DNA of 64,000 nt from Planctomycetota bacterium (GTDB lineage: Bacteria; Planctomycetota; UBA8742; UBA2392): assembly GCA_020425605.1 (NCBI GenBank), contig JAGQRH010000007.1, forward strand, positions 76,834 to 140,833. The letters run 5' to 3'. A program made the position numbers and the translations under genes. Positions 1,670 to 56,998 of the stretch are shown here, piece after piece (within the stretch, counting starts at the first letter, position 1; every line of letters starts with the position of its first letter). The notes below the pieces were generated by a model. That model saw only the letters and a list, made by a program, of their open reading frames with translations. It was not told the origin of the DNA and searched no databases.

Positions 1670-3268
1670 CTAGCCCAGGAACTTGATCGCGTTGTCGATG
1701 CGCTTGAGCGTCTCGTCTTTGCCGAGCACGAGCATGCTTTCCATCAGCGGCGGGCTGACTTTGCTGCCGGTGATGGCCATGCGGATCGGGCCGAGGAACG
1801 GGCCAAGCTTCATGCCGAGCTCTTCGGCCTTGGCGCGCGATGCCTCGTCCAGGTGTTTGATGGCGGCTTCCGGGTCGTTGAAATCAGCAACGTCGACGAT
1901 GGCGCGCACTTCGGCGAGTGCTCTCTCCGCGTCGTCCAGCGTGCACTTCTTCTGCACGAAATCGTCGGGCGTGTAGCTGAATTCGTCCGTGAAGAACATC
2001 GGCAGGTAGTCGGCCGCCTCGCTCAGCGTGTGCATGCGCTCGCGGATCAGCGGTATGATCGGCGCAAGCAGCTTCGGGTTGACTTCGTAGCTGGTCATCA
2101 GCTCGGGCGCGAGGCCGCCCAGCACGCGGCTGCGCTGACGGCGCTTGATTTCGAATTCCCGCAGGAACTGCTCGGTCGGCAGCTGGTCTTCCGGCAGGTC
2201 GGCGAATTCCTTTTCGCGGTGCATCAGCAGCTTCGCGTACTCAACGAGGCGCTTCTCCAGCTCATCGGGCGCCAGCGCCCGGATGTATTCGCCGTTCAGC
2301 CAATGCAGCTTCTGCAGGTCAAAGATCGGCGCGCCGGTGTTGACCTTCTCCAGTGCGAACTCGCGCAGGAATTCTTCGTAGGTGAAGATCTCCTGGTCGT
2401 TGGGCATGGAGAAACCCATCAACGACAGGAAGTTGCGCAGCGCCTCGGGCAGGAAGCCCGCGTCGCGATACCACAGCAGGCTGGTCGGGTTCTTGCGCTT
2501 GCTGATCTTGCTCTTGTCCTTGTTGCGCAGCAGCGGCATGTGCGCGAAGACCGGCAGCTCATAGCCCAGCGCTTCATACAACACAAAGTGCAGCGGCGTG
2601 CTCGGCAGCCACTCCTCGGCGCGGATCACGTGGGTGATCTTCATGGCGTTGTCGTCCACTGCCATCGCCAGGTGATAGGTCGGGAAGCCGTCTGACTTGA
2701 GCATCACGGCATCCTGCTGGTCGGCGGCCTCGAACTTCAGCACGCCGCGGAACAGGTCACGCGTCTCGATCTCGCCTTCACGCGGCATCTTCAGGCGCAC
2801 GACATATTCTTCGCCGGCCGCCTCCTTCGCCGCGACTTCTTCAGCGCTCAGTCCGCGGCACAGCCCGTCATAGCCGAAGCGGCTGGCCTTCTCGGCCTGC
2901 TGGATCTTGCGCAGCGTCGCGAGCCGCTCGGCCGTGCAGAAACACTTGTAGGCCTTGCCGGCGGCGCAAAGTTTGTTGGATGCTTCCTTATACAGGGGTA
3001 ACCGCTCGCTCTGGCGGTACGGGCCGTACTCGCCACCGACGCCGGGGCCTTCGTCGGGCGAAAGCCCGAGCCACGCCAGCGCCTCGAAAATCTTCTGCTC
3101 AGAATCAGCGACGTAGCGGGTTCGGTCCGTGTCCTCGATGCGCAGGACGAACTTGCCGCCGGTTTTGTCGGCAAGCGCGCGGTCGAAGAGCGACATATAG
3201 GCAGTCCCCACGTGCGGGTCGCCGGTCGGGCTGGGGGCTACGCGTACTCTGGCTGGCTTGTCAGTCAT
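1670..3268 (-). CDS. gltX: glutamate--tRNA ligase (glutamyl-tRNA synthetase)
   Basis: ORF 1670-3691 (-). The conserved region begins at MTDKPARVRVAPSPTGDPHVGTAYMSLF (HIGH-type motif) and includes KISKRK (KMSKS-type motif). I place the start at ATG 3268. The upstream 141 codons of the ORF are Arg/Pro-rich read-through, not GluRS-like. Confidence 0.93.
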   Translation of the reverse strand: MTDKPARVRVAPSPTGDPHVGTAYMSLFDRALADKTGGKFVLRIEDTDRTRYVADSEQKIFEALAWLGLSPDEGPGVGGEYGPYRQSERLPLYKEASNKLCAAGKAYKCFCTAERLATLRKIQQAEKASRFGYDGLCRGLSAEEVAAKEAAGEEYVVRLKMPREGEIETRDLFRGVLKFEAADQQDAVMLKSDGFPTYHLAMAVDDNAMKITHVIRAEEWLPSTPLHFVLYEALGYELPVFAHMPLLRNKDKSKISKRKNPTSLLWYRDAGFLPEALRNFLSLMGFSMPNDQEIFTYEEFLREFALEKVNTGAPIFDLQKLHWLNGEYIRALAPDELEKRLVEYAKLLMHREKEFADLPEDQLPTEQFLREFEIKRRQRSRVLGGLAPELMTSYEVNPKLLAPIIPLIRERMHTLSEAADYLPMFFTDEFSYTPDDFVQKKCTLDDAERALAEVRAIVDVADFNDPEAAIKHLDEASRAKAEELGMKLGPFLGPIRMAITGSKVSPPLMESMLVLGKDETLKRIDNAIKFLG

Positions 3269-3337
3269 GCTTGCTCCGGGGCATTTCGGGCCGCAAGGGT
3301 AACGAGCACACGTTTCGGTTGCCATCCCTTGTACACT

Positions 3338-4114
3338 ATGCCCATGAAGCCGAAGCCCAGGCACCTCGGGCCGGAGTACGGCTCGCAATGGCAAGACCGC
3401 AGCATGGCGGCTGCATACCAGCACAGGCCGCCGTACCCCGCCCTGGTGTTCGAGGTGCTGAAGCGTATCGCCAAGCCCGGGCCGGTGCTGGAGATCGGTG
3501 CAGGCAGCGGCGACGCGACTCTCGAGCTTGCCTGGCGCTTCGACCGCATCGACGCCATCGAGCCATCCGCTGCGATGCTCGCCATGGCGGCGCGACGTAC
3601 GGGCCGCAACATCCGCTGGATCCAGTCCAGCTTTGAGGATGCGGAGCTTTCGCCACCTTACGGGCTGGCCGTCGCGGCCGAGAGCCTGCATTGGACGAAC
3701 TGGAGTGTGAGCCTGCCCAAGATCGCGGATGCGCTCGCGCCCGGGGCAGTACTGGCGTTGATCGAGCGAATCACCGTCGAGACGCCGTGGACGGCCGAGC
3801 TGGCCAATGCACTAGAACGCTACTCGACGAACAAGCTGTACGAGCCGTACGACCTGGTGGAAGAGCTTCGGGCTCGCCGACTGTTTCGGGTCACGGGAGG
3901 TACCAGCACACTGCGCGAGAGGCGAGCGGTCACGATCGAGGATTACATCGAAGGCCTTCACTCGCGAAACGGCCTGTCACGTGACCGCATGCCTGCGGCC
4001 GACGCCGACGCGTTCGATGCCGCGATTCGCGCGACGGTCCAGCCGCACCTGAAGGACGAACTGGTACCCCTCGCCACGTACGCGCAGCTGACCTGGGGCA
4101 TCCCGATGCCATGA
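3338..4114 (+). CDS. class I SAM-dependent methyltransferase
   Basis: ORF 3212-4114. SAM-binding motif I is VLEIGAGSGDATLELA, followed by IDAIEPS (acidic loop). The likely start is ATG 3338 (MPMKPKPRHLG), which avoids overlap with the divergent gltX start. Confidence 0.75.
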   Translation: MPMKPKPRHLGPEYGSQWQDRSMAAAYQHRPPYPALVFEVLKRIAKPGPVLEIGAGSGDATLELAWRFDRIDAIEPSAAMLAMAARRTGRNIRWIQSSFEDAELSPPYGLAVAAESLHWTNWSVSLPKIADALAPGAVLALIERITVETPWTAELANALERYSTNKLYEPYDLVEELRARRLFRVTGGTSTLRERRAVTIEDYIEGLHSRNGLSRDRMPAADADAFDAAIRATVQPHLKDELVPLATYAQLTWGIPMP

Positions 4115-10034: not shown

Positions 10035-10134
10035 CGCGGGATTTCATTCAATTTCTGTCGCCATGTACGTGTAAGATCATCAGCGTTTGCAGCCACCCAT
10101 TAGGGAGCGCCCGCGCCGCATCATTGGAGGGATC

Positions 10135-11130
10135 ATGAGATTTCTGTTAGTCACTGCGATCGGTTTCCTTGCATTCGCGCAAAGCCTGAGCGCCCAGAGG
10201 ATTGAGGGCAAAGATGCCCCGGCGTTCAGCATGGGCGGCGTCGTTAACCGGGATGGTGCAGTGGACCTGGCCGACATGGCCGGCGATGTCATCGTCATCA
10301 AGGTCTGGGGAATTACTTGAGGTCCCTGCCTGCGGCAGTTGCCGCACTTCGAAGAGTCCTACAAGAAGTACAGGGAAAAGGGTGTTCACTACTTTGCACT
10401 GGAAGGCGACGGGCTGACCATGCCCGAGAACCAAGCTTTCGCGGGCGAATGGGGCTACTCCTTCCCGATCGTGACCCTGGCCGACAGCAAACTGTCGGGC
10501 TATGACGTTGTCACCATGCCCTCGACATTCGTGATCAACGCTTTCGGCCGTGTCGTGTTCCAGGGCGACGGAGACTATGAGAAGTACATCGAGGCGTCAC
10601 TCAAGGACGCCCCATACCCGTACCTCGCAAAGAACAAGGTCGCATCCGAGTGCGAAAAGGCCGCGGAGGCCTTTGCCAAGGGCGACTACACAACGGCCCG
10701 AACCCTGGCAAACGAGTTGCTGGCCGGCGAGCCGGCTGAAGAGGTCGCCGCGGACGCATCCCACATCGTGGGTCGATGCGAGGCGTTTGCAAAGCTGTGG
10801 CGCGACGAGGCAGACGCGGCAAAGGCAGATGGCAGATATGAGGACGCCCTGTCGGCCGTCGAGAATCTCGCCACGCACTTCAAAGGCGAAGAGCTCGGGG
10901 ACAAAGCGGGCGACGAAGCCAAGGAACTCAAGAAAGACAAGGACGCCAAGGCCGAGATCAAGGCCAGAAAAGACCTCGCCAAGGTGCTTGCAGCAAACAA
11001 GAAGCTGAAGACGAAAGAAGACAAACTGTCCGCGCTCTACAAGTTCTACGAAAAGAACGAGGGCACGGCGGCCGCCAGCGATGCCAAGGCCATGGCCGAA
11101 GCGATCAAGGACAGCAAGCTCTTCAAGTGA
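10135..11130 (+). CDS. exported TlpA/ResA-like thioredoxin-fold protein, predicted selenoprotein (TGA 10318-10320 read as Sec; active site W-G-I-T-U-G-P-C), with a K/E/A-rich helical C-terminal domain
   Basis: Track ORFs 10087-10320 and 10339-11130 are in the same frame and are separated only by TGA. The joined product reads ...VIVIKVWGIT[TGA]GPCLRQLPHFEESYKKYREKGVHYFAL...VTMPSTFVINAFGRVVFQG. Start is ATG 10135 after GGAGGG, giving the signal peptide MRFLLVTAIGFLAFAQSLSAQ. A hairpin lies 10 nt after the TGA. Confidence 0.7.
10331..10346 (+). promoter_or_regulatory. SECIS-like stem-loop downstream of the in-frame UGA
   Basis: Perfect inverted repeat TGCGGCA-GT-TGCCGCA. Realistic fold is a 5-6 bp GC-rich stem with an AGUU/CAGUUG apical loop containing GU. 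The stem base lies 10 nt after the UGA, close to the ~11 nt spacing of the E. coli fdhF minimal SECIS. Confidence 0.5.
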
Positions 11131-11142
11131 GCCGGAGATGCC

Positions 11143-12645
11143 ATGCGCACCGCAATACGGATCATTGCCGTAGCTTTGCTGTTTGGACTGTTCGCAAATG
11201 GGCCCCAGGGGCAGAAAGCCACGGGCAGCCAGGCTGCGGTGTTCGACACGCCGGCCGGCAGGTTCACGGATCTCGGATTGAACTCGCAGGGCTACCGCGA
11301 AGTACGGCGCGAGAAAGACGGCGCCACGATGGTGGTTGTTCCGGCCGGCTGGTTTACCAAGCAAACCTATGTCGGCGACCCGACCGTGGACGCCGAAACG
11401 TTCCCCCTCTTCACTCCGGCATTCCTGATCGACAAGTACGAAGTCACCAATGCGCAGGTCGGCGCGTACTTCGCGCAGGCAAAGGACCTTAGATTTGATT
11501 CCGAACGGGTGTACGCCGGCAAGCAGCTGCTCGCACGGGATCACAAATGGGGCTTGTCAGTAGAAGACGGCAAAGTAGCGGTGCGGACGGGGCTTGAGAA
11601 GTATCCAAGCGTCGGCACGACCGGAGATCTCGCGCTGGCCTTCGCCCACTGGGTGGGCGGTGATCTTCCCTACGGCTACGAGTGGGAAAAGGCCGCTGCC
11701 GGACCGTCCGGGCTCCAGTTTCCCTGGGGAGACGCTGCCGCAGACAGCACGCGGGCGAACAGCTTCCTGAGTGGCCCCAGGCACCCGATGCCCGTTGGAA
11801 GCTACGCCGACGGCGTCTCGCCCTATGGCCTGTACGACATGGCCGGCAACGTTTACGACCGCTGCTACTGGTTCGAGTCCGACAAGGAGATCGATCCCAA
11901 GGCGGTACCAAGGATGATCCGGGGCGGCAGCTGGGTCTCGCCGCACTGGGCGAACTTGCGCACCGTGGATCGCTGTGCCCAGCCCATGGACGCCGCTGAG
12001 GGTTCCGTCGGCTTCCGCTGCCTGATCCGCGACGAGAAAGTGCTTGAGGCAATCGGAGAAGCAAGCAAGCCCGCGTTGCGCATCCACGACGACGTGGATG
12101 GCGCATTCAAGGAAGCCGCGGCCAGAAACGTGCCGATTTTCCTGTTTCTGGCCTACGAAACCTGCGGCCAGTGTGACCGCAGCCGCGCCCAGGTGTTCAC
12201 CGACCCCGAGTTCATCAAGTACATCAACGAGAACATCGTTCTACTCGTGGGTCACAACGCCGGCGATGGCGCGGCTGACCCCGTGGATCCGGACAGCGGG
12301 CCTAGCGTTCTGTATCCCGGCTGCCGCGCGGAGAAGCTGCACGCCACGTTCGACTACTTCTGCCGCATGGTGAACGTGCGGGTGGTGCCGAAGCAGATCA
12401 CGGAATTTACAGTCAGCCCGGGACTCTTTGCGCTGAACCCTCACCTGGACCTGCAGGAAGCGCCCGACCAGATGGTGCTGGTCGGCGAATCCGCATTCAG
12501 GAAGAGCGGTGATGACGCAAAAGGGCTCGTCGCGGCGCTGAAAAAGGCACAGGGCCGGCTCGGCACGGGGCTGACGTTCGCAGAGTTTGAAGCCGGCAAG
12601 GAAACACCCGTCACGACCTGGCAGCCACCGGCCGATGAAGACTGA
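11143..12645 (+). CDS. exported formylglycine-generating-enzyme (FGE-sulfatase/SUMF1) domain protein fused to a C-terminal thioredoxin-like domain (CGQC)
   Basis: 500-aa ORF with an N-terminal signal-like segment MRTAIRIIAVALLFGLFA. FGE-type motifs are YEVTNAQ, YGYEWEKAA, SPYGLYDMAGNVYD and RGGSW. The C-terminal part has PIFLFLAYETCGQCDRS, a thioredoxin-fold CxxC context. Confidence 0.8.
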   Translation: MRTAIRIIAVALLFGLFANGPQGQKATGSQAAVFDTPAGRFTDLGLNSQGYREVRREKDGATMVVVPAGWFTKQTYVGDPTVDAETFPLFTPAFLIDKYEVTNAQVGAYFAQAKDLRFDSERVYAGKQLLARDHKWGLSVEDGKVAVRTGLEKYPSVGTTGDLALAFAHWVGGDLPYGYEWEKAAAGPSGLQFPWGDAAADSTRANSFLSGPRHPMPVGSYADGVSPYGLYDMAGNVYDRCYWFESDKEIDPKAVPRMIRGGSWVSPHWANLRTVDRCAQPMDAAEGSVGFRCLIRDEKVLEAIGEASKPALRIHDDVDGAFKEAAARNVPIFLFLAYETCGQCDRSRAQVFTDPEFIKYINENIVLLVGHNAGDGAADPVDPDSGPSVLYPGCRAEKLHATFDYFCRMVNVRVVPKQITEFTVSPGLFALNPHLDLQEAPDQMVLVGESAFRKSGDDAKGLVAALKKAQGRLGTGLTFAEFEAGKETPVTTWQPPADED

Positions 12646-17417: not shown

Positions 17418-20400
17418 ATGCGCCAGGTTCTGTCCGCACTCATGAAGGAAGGCGTGATCAGCGTGGTTGTGCTGATCCTGCTGTGCCTGCTGGTCTGGTT
17501 CGGGGGTATGTACCTCGAAACCGAGCCCAACGAATACCTGAAGACACGCATTGCGATCATCGCGGTTCTGATCGGCATTTTCCTGGTGCTCTTCCTGGTC
17601 CAGAAAGTGATGGCCGTCCGCAGCGCCGTGCGCATTGAGCAGCAGCTCAAGGCCCAGTCCGGAAGCCAGCTGGAAGGTGCCGACGCCGACAAGAAGGCCG
17701 AGATCGAGACGCTCTCCAAGAACTTCGCCGACTCGTTGGAAGCCCTGAAAAAGACCAAGGGCGGCAAGAGCGCGCTGTTCACCCTGCCCTGGTACATCAT
17801 CATCGGCCCGCCCGGCAGCGGCAAGACGACCGCGCTTCAGGAGTCCGGGCTGAACTTCCCGGCCGTACAGGGCGGCGCAAAAGTCCGCGGCATTGGCGGC
17901 ACGCGCAACTGCGACTGGTGGTTTACGGAAGACGGCATCCTGCTCGATACGGCCGGGCGCTACACCACGGTTGCAGAGGACCAGGAAGAATGGTTCGCCT
18001 TCCTCGAGATGATCCGCACCAGCCGCAAGGACAAGCCGATCAACGGCGCCATCGTCGCGATCGCGATCGATGAGCTGCACCGGGCGACAGCCTCTGAGCT
18101 TGACCAGATGGCCAAGGATGTGCGCAACCGGCTGGATGAGCTTGCCGCGCGCCTGCAGGCGGTCTTCCCGGTCTACATGATGTTCACGAAATGCGACCTG
18201 ATTCAGGGGTTCGTTGAGTTCTACGAAGACTTCAACAAAGAGCAGCGCGGCCAGGTCTGGGGCTTCACGTTCCCCTACCAGCTGCCTGACAAGCAGTACA
18301 CGGAAGTCTTCAGTGAGCAGATCGCGAAGATGTCCGGCAACATCAGCGCCCGCCAGCTTGAGTTGCTGGGTACAGAGCGCCCGCCTGCAAAGAAACAGAG
18401 CATCTACCTGTTCCCGCGTCAGTTCGCGCTGGCACAGGTCAAGATGAAAGAGTTCCTGGCTGCGTTGTTCCACGCAAACGCCTTCCAGGAAAGCGCCATG
18501 TTGCGCGGTATCTACTTCACGTCCGGCACTCAGAAGGGCACGCCGATCGACCAGATCCTGGCCCGGATGGGCGAAGCCATGGGGCTGGACGCCGGCGCAA
18601 ATCAATCCGAAGAGCGCGTCGAGAAGAAGAGCTACTTCATCCACAACCTCTTCACGAACGTAATCTTCCACGACAAGACACTCGCCCGCAGCAGCAGCCG
18701 CGTATTGCGAAAACGCCGCGCCGCCCGCCTGACACTTCAGATCACCTCGTTGCTGGCACTGGCGCTCATGAGCTGGGCCCTGTTGCAGTCGTTCTTCGGC
18801 AACCACGAGATCATTGAGAAAGTCGAGACCGCAGGCATCAGCGTGCGCGACATGGAGCTCGACAGCAGGCCGGACCTCGATGAGCTGAAGTCACTCGACG
18901 CCCTGCGGCGCGAACTCTCACACTTGGACGAGTTCAAGCGCGATGGCCGCCCGGTGCGCCTCAGCTTCGGCATGTACAAAGGCGACGCCATGTTTGATGC
19001 CGGCGCAAACGTCTACTTCCAGCGCCTCCGCCCGCTGTACATCGCCCCCTGTGGTACGCGCGTCGAGCGCGAACTCGACCGCCTGGTGGGCTCGCTGCAG
19101 CCCAACTCGCCATCCAACGAGTACCAGAAGCTGCTCGACCTGTGGCGCGTCTACCGCATGATTGGCGGCAAACTCCCGCCGCAGGCCGCACTCGTCAGCA
19201 ACATCCTCAAGAAGGAAAATCGCTGGAGCGGAATGCTGCCGGGGATGAACGCCGACGAAATCGAAGCGCTGTCCGGCGAACAGCTGGAATTCTACGCAGC
19301 GCAACTCGCAATCACTGACAAGGAAAACGACAAATACGGGCTGTATGTCTCGCTCGATCCCCAGCTCGACAAGCGCGCCGCGGACAAGCTGCAAAACGCG
19401 TTCTGGACCGTCTCGGCCTACGAGGCGATCATCCAGCACACCAGCGAGAATCGCAAACCACTCAGGCTCGAGGATATCGCGCCGACCAACACGGCCTATC
19501 TTGAGCTGCGTACAAACGACACGGCCGGCACGAACCTGAGCCGACTGAACGCGTTCACGCAAGAGGCCTGGGATACCGAGATCAAGTCGCTGATCGACGA
19601 GCGAAGCATTGACCTCGAGGCGCTCTACAACGAACTCGGAATCAAGAAGACACGTGGGGACATCCGCGACGACCTGTACAAGCGCCACAAGGCCGCGCAG
19701 ATCGATGTGTGGAACATCTTCCTCCAGCAGGTCTACCCGAAGCCCAGCCTGTTCAGCAACGTGAAGGACACGAATGAGGCGCTGAAGGTCCTGGTTGGCG
19801 ATCAGTCACCGTATCGGGACCTGATCCGGAACGTGTGGAACAAGCGCCAGCTGGCGCTCGCCGTGGACAACAAGATCGACGGCCCCAGCGAGGCAGACCT
19901 CAAGGCCCTGGATACGTCGTTCGCAGCACTGGACGCGTTCTCCAAGGCATACAACACGTTCTGGAGCACGGGCGGTCGCAAGGGCTCCCGCGTGATGAGC
20001 TATGTCGACAACAAGGTTCCGTTGCCGACGCTCGCCACTGCCTTTCTTTCGGCATCTCAGGACGTACCGCAGCCGTTCTCGACTCGCGACGAGTCGGTGA
20101 AAGTTGCACTGCTGAAGATCATCGACGTCAGCTTCGACGCACTGAAATCCGAGGCCGACGCTGAAGTCAAGGACTACTGGAATGACGGCCCGCAGAAACT
20201 GTGGAAGCTGAGCTTCGCAGGCAAGTATCCGTTCGATCCAAAGGGCAAAGACTCCGTCTCGATGGTCAACTTTTCTCGCATGTTCAGCCCGAAGTCAGGC
20301 CAGATCTGGAATGTCGACACGCGCGTGCGCGAAGTCCAGAAGATCGCCTTCCACGGCGGCCGCAGGCTCGTGACCCTGACCCAGGAGTACGAAAACACGA

Positions 20401-20915
20401 TCCGCCTCGCCACTGACATCCGCGAGGCGATGTACGACACCGAGAATGACGACAACGTGAAGGTGAAGTTCTCGGTCAAGCTGGTCCAGGCCGGCCTTCT
20501 GGTTGAGAGCCTGATCGAGATCGGTACGGATGAAAACGGCAACGTCGAGTCTCTGCCCTACAACAAGTACCCCGACCAGACCCGCGACTTCGTCTGGGCC
20601 CAGTACAGTACCGGTCGCTCCAAGATGGGCGCCCGCGTCACTGCCAAGTACACCGAGCGCAAGATTCCGTTGCCCGGCAAGGGCCAGATGGATGACGAGT
20701 GGGGCCTGCTGCGCCTGGTACACCGCCCGTATGCGCTCTCTTTCACCCAGGATGAGGCAAGCGAAGTACCGGTCTACCGTTGCCTCTGGGAGTTCAAGTC
20801 GGCCGACGGGCAGCTGTTTTACCTGCAGGCAGAGTTCGCACCCCGAAAGAAAGTGAACCCCTTCCAGGATGACCTGTTCCCCGGCTTCTCGCTCGCGGAG
20901 GCCGTGAGCAAGTGA
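17418..20915 (+). CDS. tssM: T6SS membrane-complex protein TssM (IcmF family)
   Basis: 1165 aa. N-terminal TM segments, Walker A GPPGSGKTTAL, and IcmF-like length and synteny after tssL. Confidence 0.92.
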   Translation: MRQVLSALMKEGVISVVVLILLCLLVWFGGMYLETEPNEYLKTRIAIIAVLIGIFLVLFLVQKVMAVRSAVRIEQQLKAQSGSQLEGADADKKAEIETLSKNFADSLEALKKTKGGKSALFTLPWYIIIGPPGSGKTTALQESGLNFPAVQGGAKVRGIGGTRNCDWWFTEDGILLDTAGRYTTVAEDQEEWFAFLEMIRTSRKDKPINGAIVAIAIDELHRATASELDQMAKDVRNRLDELAARLQAVFPVYMMFTKCDLIQGFVEFYEDFNKEQRGQVWGFTFPYQLPDKQYTEVFSEQIAKMSGNISARQLELLGTERPPAKKQSIYLFPRQFALAQVKMKEFLAALFHANAFQESAMLRGIYFTSGTQKGTPIDQILARMGEAMGLDAGANQSEERVEKKSYFIHNLFTNVIFHDKTLARSSSRVLRKRRAARLTLQITSLLALALMSWALLQSFFGNHEIIEKVETAGISVRDMELDSRPDLDELKSLDALRRELSHLDEFKRDGRPVRLSFGMYKGDAMFDAGANVYFQRLRPLYIAPCGTRVERELDRLVGSLQPNSPSNEYQKLLDLWRVYRMIGGKLPPQAALVSNILKKENRWSGMLPGMNADEIEALSGEQLEFYAAQLAITDKENDKYGLYVSLDPQLDKRAADKLQNAFWTVSAYEAIIQHTSENRKPLRLEDIAPTNTAYLELRTNDTAGTNLSRLNAFTQEAWDTEIKSLIDERSIDLEALYNELGIKKTRGDIRDDLYKRHKAAQIDVWNIFLQQVYPKPSLFSNVKDTNEALKVLVGDQSPYRDLIRNVWNKRQLALAVDNKIDGPSEADLKALDTSFAALDAFSKAYNTFWSTGGRKGSRVMSYVDNKVPLPTLATAFLSASQDVPQPFSTRDESVKVALLKIIDVSFDALKSEADAEVKDYWNDGPQKLWKLSFAGKYPFDPKGKDSVSMVNFSRMFSPKSGQIWNVDTRVREVQKIAFHGGRRLVTLTQEYENTIRLATDIREAMYDTENDDNVKVKFSVKLVQAGLLVESLIEIGTDENGNVESLPYNKYPDQTRDFVWAQYSTGRSKMGARVTAKYTERKIPLPGKGQMDDEWGLLRLVHRPYALSFTQDEASEVPVYRCLWEFKSADGQLFYLQAEFAPRKKVNPFQDDLFPGFSLAEAVSK

Positions 20916-34221: not shown

Positions 34222-36498
34222 GTGAAAGTCCGCAACCGTACGGATTTCCCGTTCGCGCCTCTGCTCGGCCGCGTGAACTATCCCAACTACGCCGTGACGT
34301 GCACGGTGAAGGGGACGTTCGCGCTGAAGCCGGGTGGCGTGCTTGAGCCGCTGGACGAGCAGCCCCAGTTCGAAGGCGACGTGCCCAGCAAAGCCGAGCG
34401 GCCGGAGTGTCTCTACGCCGCCGACCTTGTGCCCTACAAGCCGAAGGCCGACCTGCTGCTGCGGGCCGAATGCCACACGCCCGGCGGGAAGGGCGTAACG
34501 GCGTGCCCGGTTATCTTCAGCGTCGGCCAGTGGTCGAAAGAGCTGGCGGTGATCGGCAACCGCAAGTGGGAGAAGAGCCTCGTATTCAGCAAGATGACCG
34601 AGCCGGATGTCTTCAACCGCGTCGAGCTGACCTGGGGCAATGCCTTCGGCGGCGAGAAGTTCGCACTGAACCCGGCCGGCAAGGGCCGCAAAGACGGTTT
34701 GCTGCCGAACGTTGAGTACCCCGACGAACTGGTCAAAAGCGCAGGCAATCAGCCAACGCCGGCGAGCTTCGGCCCGATCGACCGTACCTGGAAGCAGCGC
34801 GCAAGCAAGCTTGGCACATACGACAAGAAGTGGCAGAAAGAGCGCTGGCCTGCATACCCCAAGGACCTCGACTGGACACACTTCAACGCGGCTGCAGAGG
34901 ACCAGCAGGTTCCGTTCCTGCGCGGCGACGAGAGCTTCGCACTGACGAACATGCACGCGGAGCACGCAAGCCTGAAGGGCGAGTTGCCGTCACTGCGTGT
35001 GCGCTGCATCGCGCGCCTGAAGCCGGAACAGGGCGAAGACTTGCTCGTTCGCGACGTGGCGATGAACCTCGATACGCTCTACATCGACGTGCCGAAGATG
35101 CAGGTGACGCTGGTCTGGCGCGGCGTGTGTGACATTCGCGAGGAAGAAGGTGAAGACGTTGCCGATGTGCTCGTGTTCAGCGAGCCGCTGGCTGACTCGC
35201 CGGCCACAATCCAGCAAGTCATGCCCTGGTTTGAAGAAGAGCCAGATGACGCCGACGCCCTCCCGCCCGAGCCGCCGCTTGTCGTAGACACCGGCGTGAT
35301 GGAGGGCGACGCGCTCGCCGGCGCGATCGAAGCAATGGCGAAACAAACCGTCGGCCAACTCAACACCATGTCGCCGGTCGCTCTCAGCATGGCCCCGGCG
35401 GCGTTTGAAGGCTTCGGCCAGATGCGCTCGGCACTGGCGGGAATCGCCTCGCGCCTCAGGGCGGCCGGGCAGCCAGTCCCGCCGTCGCTCAGCCAGGTGA
35501 TGAGCGACTTTGAAAGCGACCCCGACCTGAAGGACGGCGAATCCGACCTTATGGTCGCGCAAGCGTTGGCGCTGCTGCCGGCGGCCGCGGCACTGACCGG
35601 CGCCCAGCTGGCGGGCAAGATCCGATCCGGCGAAGCCCCGCACCGCGATTTCGCGGGCGTGGACATGGCGGGCGAAGACCTGTCGGGCTCTGACCTGTCA
35701 CAAGCCGACTTCACCGGCGCCAACCTGGCGGACACCGTCTTCACGGGCTGCAAGCTCGACGGCGCGCTGTTCAGCAGTGCGAATCTGGCCGGCGCGAATC
35801 TGGCCGGCGTAAAGGCCGAGCGGGTCGATTTCACGGCAGCCAATCTGGAAGGCGCCGACCTTACGGGCGCGGGCTTCCCGCAGTGCAGTTTCGACCAAAT
35901 CAAGGCCACCGGCATCAAGCTCGACAAGGCGGAGCTGCCGGGCGCCACGTTCGCCGATGCCGACCTTGTCAATGCCGAGGCAGGCGAAGCGCAACTCAAG
36001 CAGGCCGACCTTTCACGGGCCGACCTGACGGGCGCGAACTTCGAGAAGGCCGACCTGTCCGAAGCCACGCTCAATTACGTGAAAGCCGACGGTGTGAACT
36101 TCAAGCACTGCAAAGGCGCGAGTCTGCGAGGCGCCGAAGCAAACTTCAAAGGCGCCGACTTCGAGGAAGCTGAACTGCCCGGCGCGATCTTCGAGAATGC
36201 GAACCTGGAAGATGCGAACTTCCGCTTTGCGATGCTCAAGCGTGCGCTGTTCGCGAACGCAAACCTGAGCAAGGCTGTACTGTTTGGTGCAGTCGTGCGC
36301 GGCGGCAGCCTGCGCAAGGCAAACATGGCCGGCGCCCAGGCCGGCAACGCAGACTTTTTCGAATGCGACTTTGAGAAGTCGAACCTCAAGGGCGCATCGC
36401 TGATCACCAGCAATTGCTACGGCGCCGCCTTTCGCGACGCAGACACAAGCGGCGCAGACCTGACCGAAACGAACCTCAAACAGACACTGCTGGCTTAA
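34222..36498 (+). CDS. DUF2169-domain protein fused to a C-terminal pentapeptide-repeat domain (~290 aa of A(D/N)LXX repeats)
   Basis: 758 aa with a GTG start 3 nt after the vgrG stop. The N-terminal ~330 aa are DUF2169-like (NRTDFPFAPLLGRV...VKGTFAL..GG....DEQP....D.........DLVPYKPKADLLL). From ~35640 onward there are continuous pentapeptide repeats (DLSGSDLSQADFTGANLADTVFTGCKLDGALF...). Confidence 0.8.
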   Translation: MKVRNRTDFPFAPLLGRVNYPNYAVTCTVKGTFALKPGGVLEPLDEQPQFEGDVPSKAERPECLYAADLVPYKPKADLLLRAECHTPGGKGVTACPVIFSVGQWSKELAVIGNRKWEKSLVFSKMTEPDVFNRVELTWGNAFGGEKFALNPAGKGRKDGLLPNVEYPDELVKSAGNQPTPASFGPIDRTWKQRASKLGTYDKKWQKERWPAYPKDLDWTHFNAAAEDQQVPFLRGDESFALTNMHAEHASLKGELPSLRVRCIARLKPEQGEDLLVRDVAMNLDTLYIDVPKMQVTLVWRGVCDIREEEGEDVADVLVFSEPLADSPATIQQVMPWFEEEPDDADALPPEPPLVVDTGVMEGDALAGAIEAMAKQTVGQLNTMSPVALSMAPAAFEGFGQMRSALAGIASRLRAAGQPVPPSLSQVMSDFESDPDLKDGESDLMVAQALALLPAAAALTGAQLAGKIRSGEAPHRDFAGVDMAGEDLSGSDLSQADFTGANLADTVFTGCKLDGALFSSANLAGANLAGVKAERVDFTAANLEGADLTGAGFPQCSFDQIKATGIKLDKAELPGATFADADLVNAEAGEAQLKQADLSRADLTGANFEKADLSEATLNYVKADGVNFKHCKGASLRGAEANFKGADFEEAELPGAIFENANLEDANFRFAMLKRALFANANLSKAVLFGAVVRGGSLRKANMAGAQAGNADFFECDFEKSNLKGASLITSNCYGAAFRDADTSGADLTETNLKQTLLA

Positions 36499-36499
36499 C

Positions 36500-38428
36500 A
36501 TGACGACTGGATCAAAACCGGAAAAGGCAGACGCGCTGGCGACCATCAAGGAAGCGGCCGGCGATGTATCGCGCGCACTGACCGGCGTCGATTTCTCGGG
36601 GCTTGACCTGTCGAGTGTCGACTTCAGTAGACTGAGGCTTGGCGGCGTCAACTTCGGCGCCTGCAACCTCGACGGCGCGAATTTTACCGATGCCGTCGTC
36701 ACACGCTGCAACTTTCGCGGCGCGCGTCTGCGAAAGGCCGTGGCCAGCCGCGCGGTGCTGACCGCCTGCGACTGGGGCAACGCCGATTTTGAATCCGCCG
36801 CGCTGGAAGAAGCCAACTTCATCGGTGGCACGGCCGGCGGCGCAAGGTTCAACAAGGCCAGCCTGTCCCGCGCGCGCTTCGCCAACATGGAACTGGCCAA
36901 GGTCGACTTCCAGCAGGTCACGGCCACCGACTGCGGCTTCGACGGCTGTGTGGTGGCGGGCGCCAATTTTGACGGCGCGAACCTCTCCGGTGCCGGCTTC
37001 ATCCGCGCAGACGTTCGGGGGGCCTCGCTGCGCGGCGTAACACTGGCGCAGACTTTGTTCTTGATGGCCGACCTGCGCGGCGCAGATTTCGAGAGCGCAA
37101 CCGTCAGCGAGACGCTGTTCGACGATGCCGATCTGCGCGAGGCACAGAACCTGCCGGTTCAACTGGACGGCTCCAGCTTCGGTGACGCGAACCTTGAGGG
37201 ACTGGATCTCAACGGCCGAAGCATGACGCAATGCGTGTTCACTGGCGCGAAGCTGGCGGGTACGAATCTCAGCGGCGCTGACGTGACTTCGTGCGACTTC
37301 GCACTCTCGGACCTGTCGGGTGCCAAACTCGACAATGCCATCGCCGGCGAAGCCAACTTTTCCGGCGCGACTGTTACAGGCGCCACGTTCGGCGGCACGC
37401 AACTGATTTACGCCGCCTTCGGCGAGTGCGTGCTCGACGGCCGCGACTTCAGCACCTGCGACCTGCGCGGCGCCGACTTCAACAAGTGCTCGCTGGCCGA
37501 AACCAACTTCATGGGCGCGGTGCTGCGCGGCGCAAACTTCACATCCGTGGACCTCAGGAAATACAGCTTCCGAGGCTGGCAACTCATGGAGGTCGACTTC
37601 AGCGGCTCTGACCTGCGCGAAGCGGATTTCTCGTACGCCGACCTTACCAGCGCCGTCTTCAACGATGCGCTGCTGGAGAGCGCCGACTTCCGCAACGCCG
37701 TCTGCAAGGACACCAGCTTCGCCGGCACGGAGCTCAAGGGTGCGCGCTTTGACGCCGCCAACGTGGACAAGGCGGACTTCACCAACGCGAAGCTGGCGGG
37801 CGTGGATTTCTCCGGCGCGACCCTTAAGGGCGTGATGTTCAACGGCGTCGACCTGACCACGATGCGCATCGACCAGGTACAGAGCTTCCAGTGCAGCTTC
37901 ATCGGCGCGGACCTGCATGGCCTGAAGCTGGCGGGCTCCAGCTTCGTGATGGGCGACTTCACCGATGCGAAGCTGGAGGGTGCGGACTTGACCGGCTGCG
38001 ACCTGTCGCAGGCGACCTTCACCAACGCCAACTGCAAGGCCGCGAAGTTCACCGGCGCGAAGCTGCAGGCGGCACTGTTCGACAAGACGAACCTCGCCGA
38101 GGCGCTGCTGAATGACATCACGGCACACATGGCAAACTTCCAGGAAGCGGAGATGGCCGGCGCGCGCCTCGACGGCGCGATGCTGAAGGAAACGGTGTTC
38201 AACGCCGCCAAGGCGAAGCAGGCAAGCTTCCGCAAGGCAAACCTGAACTACGCACTGCTTGAGAATGCCGAGATCGAGCTGGCTGATCTTTCCGGCGCAA
38301 ACCTGTCACACGCCAGCCTGCACTGCGCGCGCGAGACCGGCGCAAAGTTTGACGGCGCAAACCTGAAGAAGACCATCCGCACTGACGCGGACCGACTGGA
38401 GGCTGAAGCATGGAAACCCAAACGCTGA
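36500..38428 (+). CDS. pentapeptide-repeat protein (almost entirely repeats, 642 aa)
   Basis: Repeats run from ~residue 25 to ~620 (VDFSGLDLSSVDFSRLRLGGVNFGACNLDGANFTDAVV...). The start follows the upstream stop by 1 nt. The 3' end overlaps the next gene by 19 nt. Confidence 0.85.
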   Translation: MTTGSKPEKADALATIKEAAGDVSRALTGVDFSGLDLSSVDFSRLRLGGVNFGACNLDGANFTDAVVTRCNFRGARLRKAVASRAVLTACDWGNADFESAALEEANFIGGTAGGARFNKASLSRARFANMELAKVDFQQVTATDCGFDGCVVAGANFDGANLSGAGFIRADVRGASLRGVTLAQTLFLMADLRGADFESATVSETLFDDADLREAQNLPVQLDGSSFGDANLEGLDLNGRSMTQCVFTGAKLAGTNLSGADVTSCDFALSDLSGAKLDNAIAGEANFSGATVTGATFGGTQLIYAAFGECVLDGRDFSTCDLRGADFNKCSLAETNFMGAVLRGANFTSVDLRKYSFRGWQLMEVDFSGSDLREADFSYADLTSAVFNDALLESADFRNAVCKDTSFAGTELKGARFDAANVDKADFTNAKLAGVDFSGATLKGVMFNGVDLTTMRIDQVQSFQCSFIGADLHGLKLAGSSFVMGDFTDAKLEGADLTGCDLSQATFTNANCKAAKFTGAKLQAALFDKTNLAEALLNDITAHMANFQEAEMAGARLDGAMLKETVFNAAKAKQASFRKANLNYALLENAEIELADLSGANLSHASLHCARETGAKFDGANLKKTIRTDADRLEAEAWKPKR

Positions 38429-56922: not shown

Positions 56923-56924
<2 letters not shown>
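56884..56924 (-). terminator. long perfect hairpin immediately 3' of tRNA-Ala (terminator-like)
   Basis: On the + strand, GCAACAAGAACGCCCTGAGC-AGC-GCTCAGGGCGTTCTTGTTG forms a stem of up to ~19 bp that reaches into the tRNA CCA end. There is no clean U-tract beyond the stem. Confidence 0.5.

Positions 56925-56998
<74 letters not shown>

Follow-up and report, generated by a model that had tools for sequence, protein, structure and literature searches.

Within the 64,000-nucleotide stretch of Planctomycetota DNA analysed here (contig JAGQRH010000007.1 of assembly GCA_020425605.1, positions 76,834 to 140,833; hereafter the window), positions 10135-11130 of the forward strand very probably form one genuine selenoprotein gene, the predicted product of which is an exported two-domain thiol-disulfide oxidoreductase with selenocysteine (Sec, U) in its active site. 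A single stop, the internal TGA at 10318-10320, interrupts the frame between ATG 10135 and 11130, and translation through it gives ...VIVIKVWGIT-U-GPCLRQLPHFEE... An earlier note on this DNA, made from the sequence alone, had described two open reading frame (ORF) pieces (10087-10320 and 10339-11130) that share a frame and are separated only by this TGA. The sequence confirms the shared frame and the lone TGA, but not the starts of the pieces: TTG 10087 and TTG 10339 are mechanical ORF boundaries and were rejected in favour of ATG 10135, upstream of which a Shine-Dalgarno-like motif can be read (Table 1). No such motif precedes TTG 10339. The W-C-G-P-C context given in the note has to be corrected to W-G-I-T-U-G-P-C, while its cis-Pro motif MPSTF is indeed intact, as part of TMPSTF.

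TGA occupies the identical column in 21 distinct DNA sequences of the family, taken from loci in genomes and metagenomes and falling into four subgroups. Subgroup 1 contains the orthologues L001-L005 (67-84% identity) together with L013, L024 and L025 (47-49%); subgroup 2, a paralogue group, contains L006-L008, L017, L021 and L026-L029 (36-42%); subgroup 3 contains L009 and L010 (25%); and subgroup 4 contains L031-L033 and L038 (22-25%). Both flanks of the codon are conserved without any change of frame, and residues W58, G59, P64, C65, P70, P129 and G138 are invariant. In an alignment with ResA (PDB code 4nmu; E 2.5e-18), the TGA column coincides with the first active-site cysteine of WGTWCKPC. 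Cysteine is found at this column in intact family members of 331-336 residues encoded directly downstream of a Sec paralogue (L006-L008 and L017-L020) and in a more distant set of sequences (L030, L035-L037, L039, L011 and L012). One intact Cys homologue, P0031, is 39% identical to the read-through protein over 318 residues (E 2e-62), and its cysteine aligns with U62, so that the two form a Sec/Cys pair. The alignments with ResA and with the Cys homologues thus agree with the earlier proposal that the TGA stands at the first cysteine of a TlpA/ResA-like CxxC motif. Its suggestion that this column be followed through the orthologues gave TGA or Cys in every orthologue and paralogue, and a gene genuinely truncated at this site was encountered in none of the relatives examined. 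Judged from these alignments, Sec and Cys forms interchange within one large family.

Support for the TGA itself comes from an independent metagenome: the European Nucleotide Archive (ENA) assembly ERZ28655751 (L041) matches the window without a difference over 125 nt, TGA included. A scan of the window and the loci for other in-frame TGA candidates returned only off-frame artefacts of the kind typical of GC-rich DNA. Tandem pairs occur in several genomes, where an intact Cys member of the family lies about 1.1 kb downstream of a Sec form (Sec/Cys positions 10112/11211 in L006, 10112/11208 in L007, 9079/10193 in L008 and 2499/3409-4404 in L017). Three of the genomes with such a tandem have, far away from it, an orthologue of the window gene as well, giving at least two TGA-containing members and one Cys member per genome.

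A hairpin that begins 10 nt past the TGA is the candidate bacterial selenocysteine insertion sequence (bSECIS). The earlier note had described an inverted repeat at this place and spacing with GU in its loop, all of which stands; the 7-bp stem and 2-nt loop that it drew are sterically impossible and are replaced by a 6-bp stem closed by a tetraloop, UGCGGC-AGUU-GCCGCA, with a free energy of -10.0 to -10.7 kcal/mol. Computational folding, which the note had proposed as a check, therefore yields an element that fits the published bSECIS model (PMC13188914, Fig. 2A). That model calls for an apical loop of 3-9 nt with G at one of its first two positions and, as a rule, G or U next to it, an upper stem of 4-16 bp, a distance from UGA to loop of 16-37 nt and a minimum free energy of -7.5 kcal/mol or lower. 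The window hairpin lies within all four limits (loop AGUU, 6-bp stem, spacing 16 nt, -10.0 kcal/mol), the second position of its loop being G and the next U. The same limits are passed by 14 of 17 Sec forms from across the family and by none of 10 Cys forms.

Codon usage within the hairpin is unusually constrained. Among nine orthologous sequences, each of the hairpin residues R, Q, L and P is encoded by one and the same codon throughout, and H by the same codon in eight of the nine; four of the five hairpin codons are thus fixed, compared with 6 of 80 (7.5%) codons for invariant amino acids elsewhere in the gene. The paralogue group replicates this freezing, with five of six hairpin codons fixed against 8 of 75 elsewhere. 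Its stem, UGAAGGC-GUU-GCCUUCA (encoding V-K-A-L-P-S), differs from the orthologue stem UGCGGC-AGUU-GCCGCA (L-R-Q-L-P-H) by at least three double changes that preserve pairing, with the G-U loop equally far from the UGA in both; a single change in the stem of L021 converts a U-A pair to U-G. When the protein sequence was held constant and the codons were redrawn, the window hairpin was more stable than its synonymous recodings (z = -2.4), as were the natural sequences in subgroups 1 and 2 (z from -1.7 to -3.9), with the exception of L024. GC-rich Cys paralogues were no more stable than their own recodings; because the recoding used the codon usage of the window, these high-GC paralogues are the only fair Cys controls, and the positive z-scores of the low-GC Cys controls are meaningless. 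Synonymous-site and recoding tests were used in place of a consensus structure, the MAFFT alignment being codon-locked. One structure common to all Sec forms was considered and rejected, as the register shifts by 1-2 nt between subgroups and the hairpin of subgroups 3 and 4 seems to lie elsewhere. Taken from the nucleotide comparisons, the hairpin is under selection at the RNA level.

The more distant Sec sequences (L009, L010, L031-L033 and L038) contain a second hairpin, GCACCU-(loop with GU)-AGGUGC, some 29-30 nt after the TGA. It passes the bSECIS limits where the proximal hairpin fails, and in L038, of subgroup 4, an A-U pair has been exchanged for G-C by a compensatory change. This hairpin, 29-30 nt from the UGA, seems to be the one in use in subgroups 3 and 4, which suggests that the SECIS was relocated in the course of the evolution of the family.

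Several observations weigh against a selenoprotein. As many as 8.5% of 9403 codon positions in the window genes pass the bSECIS limits, 2.5% with an energy of -10 kcal/mol or lower (p ~0.025), which makes the hairpin by itself a weak signal, and the z-score of the 53-nt fold is a modest -1.39. The simple hairpins of L024, L010 and L008 fail the -7.5 kcal/mol limit, and in subgroups 3 and 4 stability does not exceed that of synonymous recodings. No SECIS family of Rfam was matched in a scan of the window at gathering thresholds or in a permissive scan of 10200-10500; the sole match, to eiav_FSE at 10410-10442, is below threshold and was dismissed as chance. ARAGORN found no tRNA-Sec in the window and 16 loci, and tblastn with approximate Escherichia coli queries gave no match to SelA, SelB or SelD in 389 kb (the window and 24 loci). 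With the hairpin alone so near to background, the case beyond chance rests on the comparative evidence. The missing sel genes are uninformative, since 64 kb of this genome and some 325 kb from related loci stand against genomes of at least 3 Mb, and full sets of Sec genes have been described in several Planctomycetes (PMC4807772).

The protein has a predicted N-terminal Sec-type (in the sense of the export pathway) signal peptide, MRFLLVTAIGFLAFAQSLSA, followed by Q. By inspection it combines a basic n-region, a hydrophobic core and small residues at -3/-1; the family alignment shows no variation at A20, and an equivalent signal-peptide-like N-terminus is present in all members, in agreement with the export signal proposed earlier. 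The first domain was matched by Pfam families PF08534 (45.9 bits; cut-off 26.6) and PF00578 (46.6 bits; cut-off 26), in both cases over residues 24-147, and therefore crosses the TGA. The fold, of thioredoxin type with the insertions characteristic of ResA, was assessed on the intact Cys homologue P0031, which stood in for the window protein at 39% identity. Its AlphaFold2 (AF2) model (pLDDT 90.9) gave a Foldseek list in which the top 50 PDB matches were all ResA, CcmG, DsbE, DipZ or Etrx structures (probability 1.00, TM 0.66-0.75), with the C/U-x-x-C motif at a strand-to-helix junction. P129 of the cis-Pro loop is paired with the 'PLPT' loop of ResA. Pfam, the ResA structure and the P0031 model are thus at one with the TlpA/ResA-like thioredoxin-fold oxidoreductase that the note had proposed.

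The C-terminal domain, with its conserved KELKKDKD motif, is all-helical and TPR-like. An AF2 model built from an alignment of post-TGA fragments contains eight helices (pLDDT 92); a fold search with it found no significant relative in the PDB, the best and weak matches being the YbgF TPR domain, BamD and 14-3-3. Residues 171-321 match positions 193-347 of the NCBIfam profile NF041382 (E 7.5e-10), at 38.6 bits against a cut-off of 350; the similarity is confined to the C-terminal domain and the VPGUxxT motif of that family is absent. ResA proper (NF002854) is scored at 79.6 bits against a cut-off of 170, and the gene has no cytochrome c maturation context. With both scores below their cut-offs, no curated NCBIfam model claims the family.

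The same pattern could in principle arise from a split gene, in which an exported peptide of about 61 residues is followed by a re-initiated protein of about 263 residues and selenium plays no part. Start codons (TTG, GTG or ATG) are present a few codons past the TGA in all members, and no Sec machinery was found in the 389 kb examined. However, these starts differ in codon and position among the subgroups and have no Shine-Dalgarno sequence, and the downstream piece would be left without the signal peptide and, in its thioredoxin fold, without strand β1 and the two redox residues. There are intact Cys homologues of equal length, some of them in tandem, and the conserved hairpin fits the SelB-binding consensus, so we regard a split gene as highly improbable. 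A further alternative is read-through of the UGA without Sec, either by near-cognate insertion of Trp, Cys or Arg with the help of the hairpin or because UGA is a reassigned sense codon. Downstream structures can generally stimulate stop-codon read-through and no Sec genes emerged from the 389 kb, but TGA is the terminator of 9 of the 26 window genes, the selenoprotein gene included, which indicates the standard genetic code. Moreover, the codon falls on the column of the nucleophilic cysteine, where a functional CxxC needs Cys or Sec; the Sec/Cys interchange, the position of the hairpin and its G-U loop match the Sec system, which other Planctomycetes are known to possess in full. This explanation, too, is most unlikely to be correct. 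A pseudogene, or a sequencing or assembly error that struck the active-site cysteine codon by chance, might be suspected because the sequence comes from a metagenome-assembled genome, because L024 has a nearby IMPDH gene in three pieces and because the pieces are deposited as separate hypothetical proteins, but it is effectively refuted by the wide sharing of the TGA among independent samples and assemblies, the identical assembly of the same organism, purifying selection on both sides of the codon and synonymous sites frozen only in the adjacent hairpin.

The IMPDH gene in question (14443-15967 of L024) is called in three consecutive pieces and reflects either assembly frameshift errors or a pseudogene; it has no effect on the TGA call, which is common to many other assemblies. 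The preference of the earlier note for a selenoprotein over a random nonsense mutation is accordingly supported by the conservation, the Sec/Cys pair and the selected hairpin.

The gene shows the defining features of the UxxC selenoproteins and so belongs to an already known kind. Such proteins (Prx-like, Redoxin and thiol-disulfide isomerase-like, i.e. TlpA-like) have been predicted since 2005 (PMC1088965, PMC1794560, PMC13188914) and are listed in the last of these papers, a review of 2026; the statement of the note that Sec/Cys interchange at the CxxC of thioredoxin-fold proteins is an established class thus holds for a class that is itself predicted. In common with the UxxC redoxin families, which are likewise predicted rather than biochemically characterized, the window protein has an AhpC-TSA/Redoxin domain with Sec in the first position of UxxC, Cys homologues and a bSECIS right after the UGA. 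By their descriptions, it differs from them in its additional helical C-terminal domain of about 165 residues and its predicted signal peptide, and it reaches no NCBIfam selenoprotein model at cut-off. With ResA, CcmG (DsbE) and TlpA (PDB codes 4nmu, 1st9, 1kng and 3gl3) it shares the thioredoxin fold, the W-x-x-x-C-x-x-C context, the cis-Pro loop, a predicted N-terminal export or anchor sequence and the domain size; unlike ResA and CcmG, it has Sec for the nucleophilic cysteine, a GP dipeptide and the extra C-terminal helical domain, and its gene lies in a type VI secretion system (T6SS) cluster rather than beside cytochrome c maturation genes. NF041382, the 'VPGUxxT family thioredoxin-like (seleno)protein, type 1', is OS_HP5 of the ocean-sampling selenoproteome (PMC13188914). 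It is a selenoprotein family of similar length (~349 residues) and two-part layout with a homologous C-terminal helical region, but its N-terminal domain does not match that of the window protein, where WG-x-x-U-G-P-C takes the place of VPGUxxT. The hairpin resembles the E. coli fdhF and fdnG SECIS elements, as modelled in bSECISearch, in being a coding-region stem-loop directly after the UGA with G then U in a small loop; it is very compact (16 nt, the minimum allowed spacing) and lacks the conserved lower stem and the bulged U of fdhF. Particular to this gene are the fusion to a C-terminal domain that the VPGUxxT selenoproteins also have and the conserved place in a Planctomycetota T6SS locus.

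Public annotation of the family reflects the reading of the Sec codon as a stop, through which Sec forms are deposited as pieces of about 60 and about 263 residues. A protein search returned 27 clusters, nearly all of 263 residues and corresponding to the piece after the TGA; MCA8914863.1, for example, is a 263-residue 'hypothetical protein'. The note had foreseen that automatic annotation would split the gene, and in the absence of a curated family model the mis-annotation is systematic. In an exhaustive profile search, 5024 representatives scored E <= 0.001, of which 589 reached <= 1e-10 and 77 reached <= 1e-30. The best 150 of the representatives, clustered at 50% identity, comprise 66 proteins of 250-299 residues that start just past the CxxC position (the truncated class), 25 intact CxxC proteins, 31 long proteins in which no CxxC was found in residues 41-110 and 28 fragments shorter than 250 residues. 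With 66 truncated, putative Sec proteins against 25 intact Cys proteins in these best 150, Sec forms apparently predominate among the closest relatives. Many of the 31 long proteins are clearly without the motif, whereas P0104, P0151 and P0174 do have a CxxC in a different upstream context. The CxxC is wholly lost and both domains are kept in P0030, P0046, P0050, P0051, P0077, P0083, P0086, P0093, P0101 and others, with sequences such as ...EWHVRDVQS... and ...EWNIRDGS... at the site; these full-length members are probably redox-inactive.

Table 1. Features of the selenoprotein gene and its surroundings (window coordinates)
Feature	Position	Strand	Remarks
Ser/Thr kinase, 1956 residues	4164-10034	+	Upstream of the selenoprotein gene; repeat-rich, PDZ-like C-terminal end; motifs read by eye
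Shine-Dalgarno-like GGAGGG	10126-10131	+	3 nt upstream of ATG 10135; read from the sequence
Predicted selenoprotein coding sequence	10135-11130	+	331 codons, Sec at codon 62, true stop TGA 11128-11130
Predicted signal peptide	10135-10194	+	By inspection
ResA/TlpA-like thioredoxin-fold (Redoxin/AhpC-TSA) domain	10204-10575	+	Residues 24-147
Redox motif U-G-P-C	10318-10329	+	U62 encoded by UGA 10318-10320; nucleophilic position
bSECIS-type hairpin	10331-10346	+	Stem 10331-10336/10341-10346; loop AGUU 10337-10340 (G10338, U10339)
cis-Pro loop proline P129 (TMPSTF)	10519-10521	+	Invariant in the family alignment
C-terminal all-helical TPR-like domain	10627-11127	+	Residues ~165-331
Exported FGE-sulfatase (formylglycine-generating-enzyme-like) and Thioredoxin_7/DUF255-like protein	11143-12645	+	CGQC motif
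T6SS cluster	12721-34218	+	NCBIfam equivalog matches, most above cut-off

The selenoprotein gene is followed after 12 nt by a gene for an exported protein that unites a formylglycine-generating-enzyme-like (FGE) part (PF03781, E 9.4e-27) with a thioredoxin-like part (PF13899, E 2.4e-7). The FGE-Trx gene adjoins the redoxin gene in four of the five orthologous loci and is its probable operon partner; in L002 its place is taken by a reverse-strand gene of 1187 residues, whose product by eye resembles a fusion of a PP2C-type phosphatase with an NTPase and TPR repeats. The true stop of the selenoprotein gene, TGA 11128, is in frame with ATG 11143 of the FGE-Trx gene, four codons away. Read-through of this stop into the next gene was considered and rejected: the orthologues end in TAA or TAG, which makes a fusion by read-through unlikely.

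On the other side lies the 1956-residue kinase, whose Ser/Thr kinase part is N-terminal and whose repeats look WD40- and TPR-like, both by eye. It is upstream of the redoxin gene in all five orthologous loci (41-81% identity) and may be a PpkA-like T6SS regulator. The apparently complete T6SS cluster encodes two TagH-like FHA proteins, TssJ, TssK, TssL, TssM (17418-20915), TagF, TssA, TssB (from 22808), TssC (from 23340), TssF, TssG, ClpV (from 28895) and VgrG (from 31696); the gap at 24.9-26.2 kb was not searched for Hcp and TssE. All five orthologous loci (L001-L005) preserve the gene order glutamate-tRNA ligase (GltX), kinase, Sec-redoxin, TagH, TssJKL, and TssM comes next wherever the fetched locus reaches that far (four of the five). 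Two large pentapeptide-repeat proteins beyond VgrG (34222-36498 and 36500-38428) could be T6SS cargo or adaptors. The match of GltX (1670-3691, reverse strand) begins at residue 148, so that some 145 residues precede it as an N-terminal extension, and its orthologues in L002-L004 can be aligned with it only past residue 132-140 or so. No RNA gene was detected in the window apart from a tRNA-Ala (GGC) at 56923-56998 on the reverse strand.

This setting invites a more ambitious proposal, namely that the family is a distinct, as yet uncurated and predominantly Sec-using clade of exported two-domain redoxins which here supplies a dedicated periplasmic T6SS selenoenzyme with an FGE/Trx-like partner. 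Such an enzyme might serve the redox upkeep of cysteines in T6SS envelope components or effectors or, alternatively, might pass redox signals on to the kinase/FHA switch. A periplasmic redox link to the T6SS is plausible in that DsbA is required for T6SS activity and effector function in Serratia (PMC5792426). Against this, the distant family members L013, L017 and L024 occur in unrelated neighbourhoods, so that the association may be lineage-specific synteny rather than function, and we consider the proposal rather unlikely as it stands.

For the selenoprotein itself, a mechanism can be outlined along the standard bacterial pathway. Translation would start at ATG 10135 and reach the UGA, 10 nt beyond which the hairpin begins, with its loop 16 nt past the codon. 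The loop would recruit SelB-GTP-Sec-tRNA(Sec), and Sec would be inserted in place of termination. The resulting protein would consist of a cleavable signal peptide, a ResA/TlpA/CcmG-like domain and the TPR-like helical C-terminal domain, with a predicted active site Sec62-Gly-Pro-Cys65 backed by the cis-Pro129 loop. After export, Sec62 might attack substrate disulfides or sulfenic or otherwise oxidized thiols, forming a selenenylsulfide that Cys65 would resolve; a putative membrane electron donor of the CcdA/DsbD type might then re-reduce the enzyme, and the helical domain would probably dock a partner or substrate.

Our understanding of how selenocysteine is decoded is unchanged by this finding. 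For annotation, many records would be mended together by a family model that makes an exception for Sec, the family being widespread and deposited as hypothetical proteins of about 263 residues and orphan mini-ORFs. For evolution, the family offers a natural experiment in Sec/Cys exchange, with tandem paralogues, CxxC-less relatives and stems rebuilt in each subgroup. For the biology of environmental Planctomycetota, the gene points to a predicted selenium-dependent extracytoplasmic redox chemistry beside a T6SS, a link that is testable; should the doubtful T6SS proposal prove true, a selenoprotein would for the first time be linked to a secretion machine.

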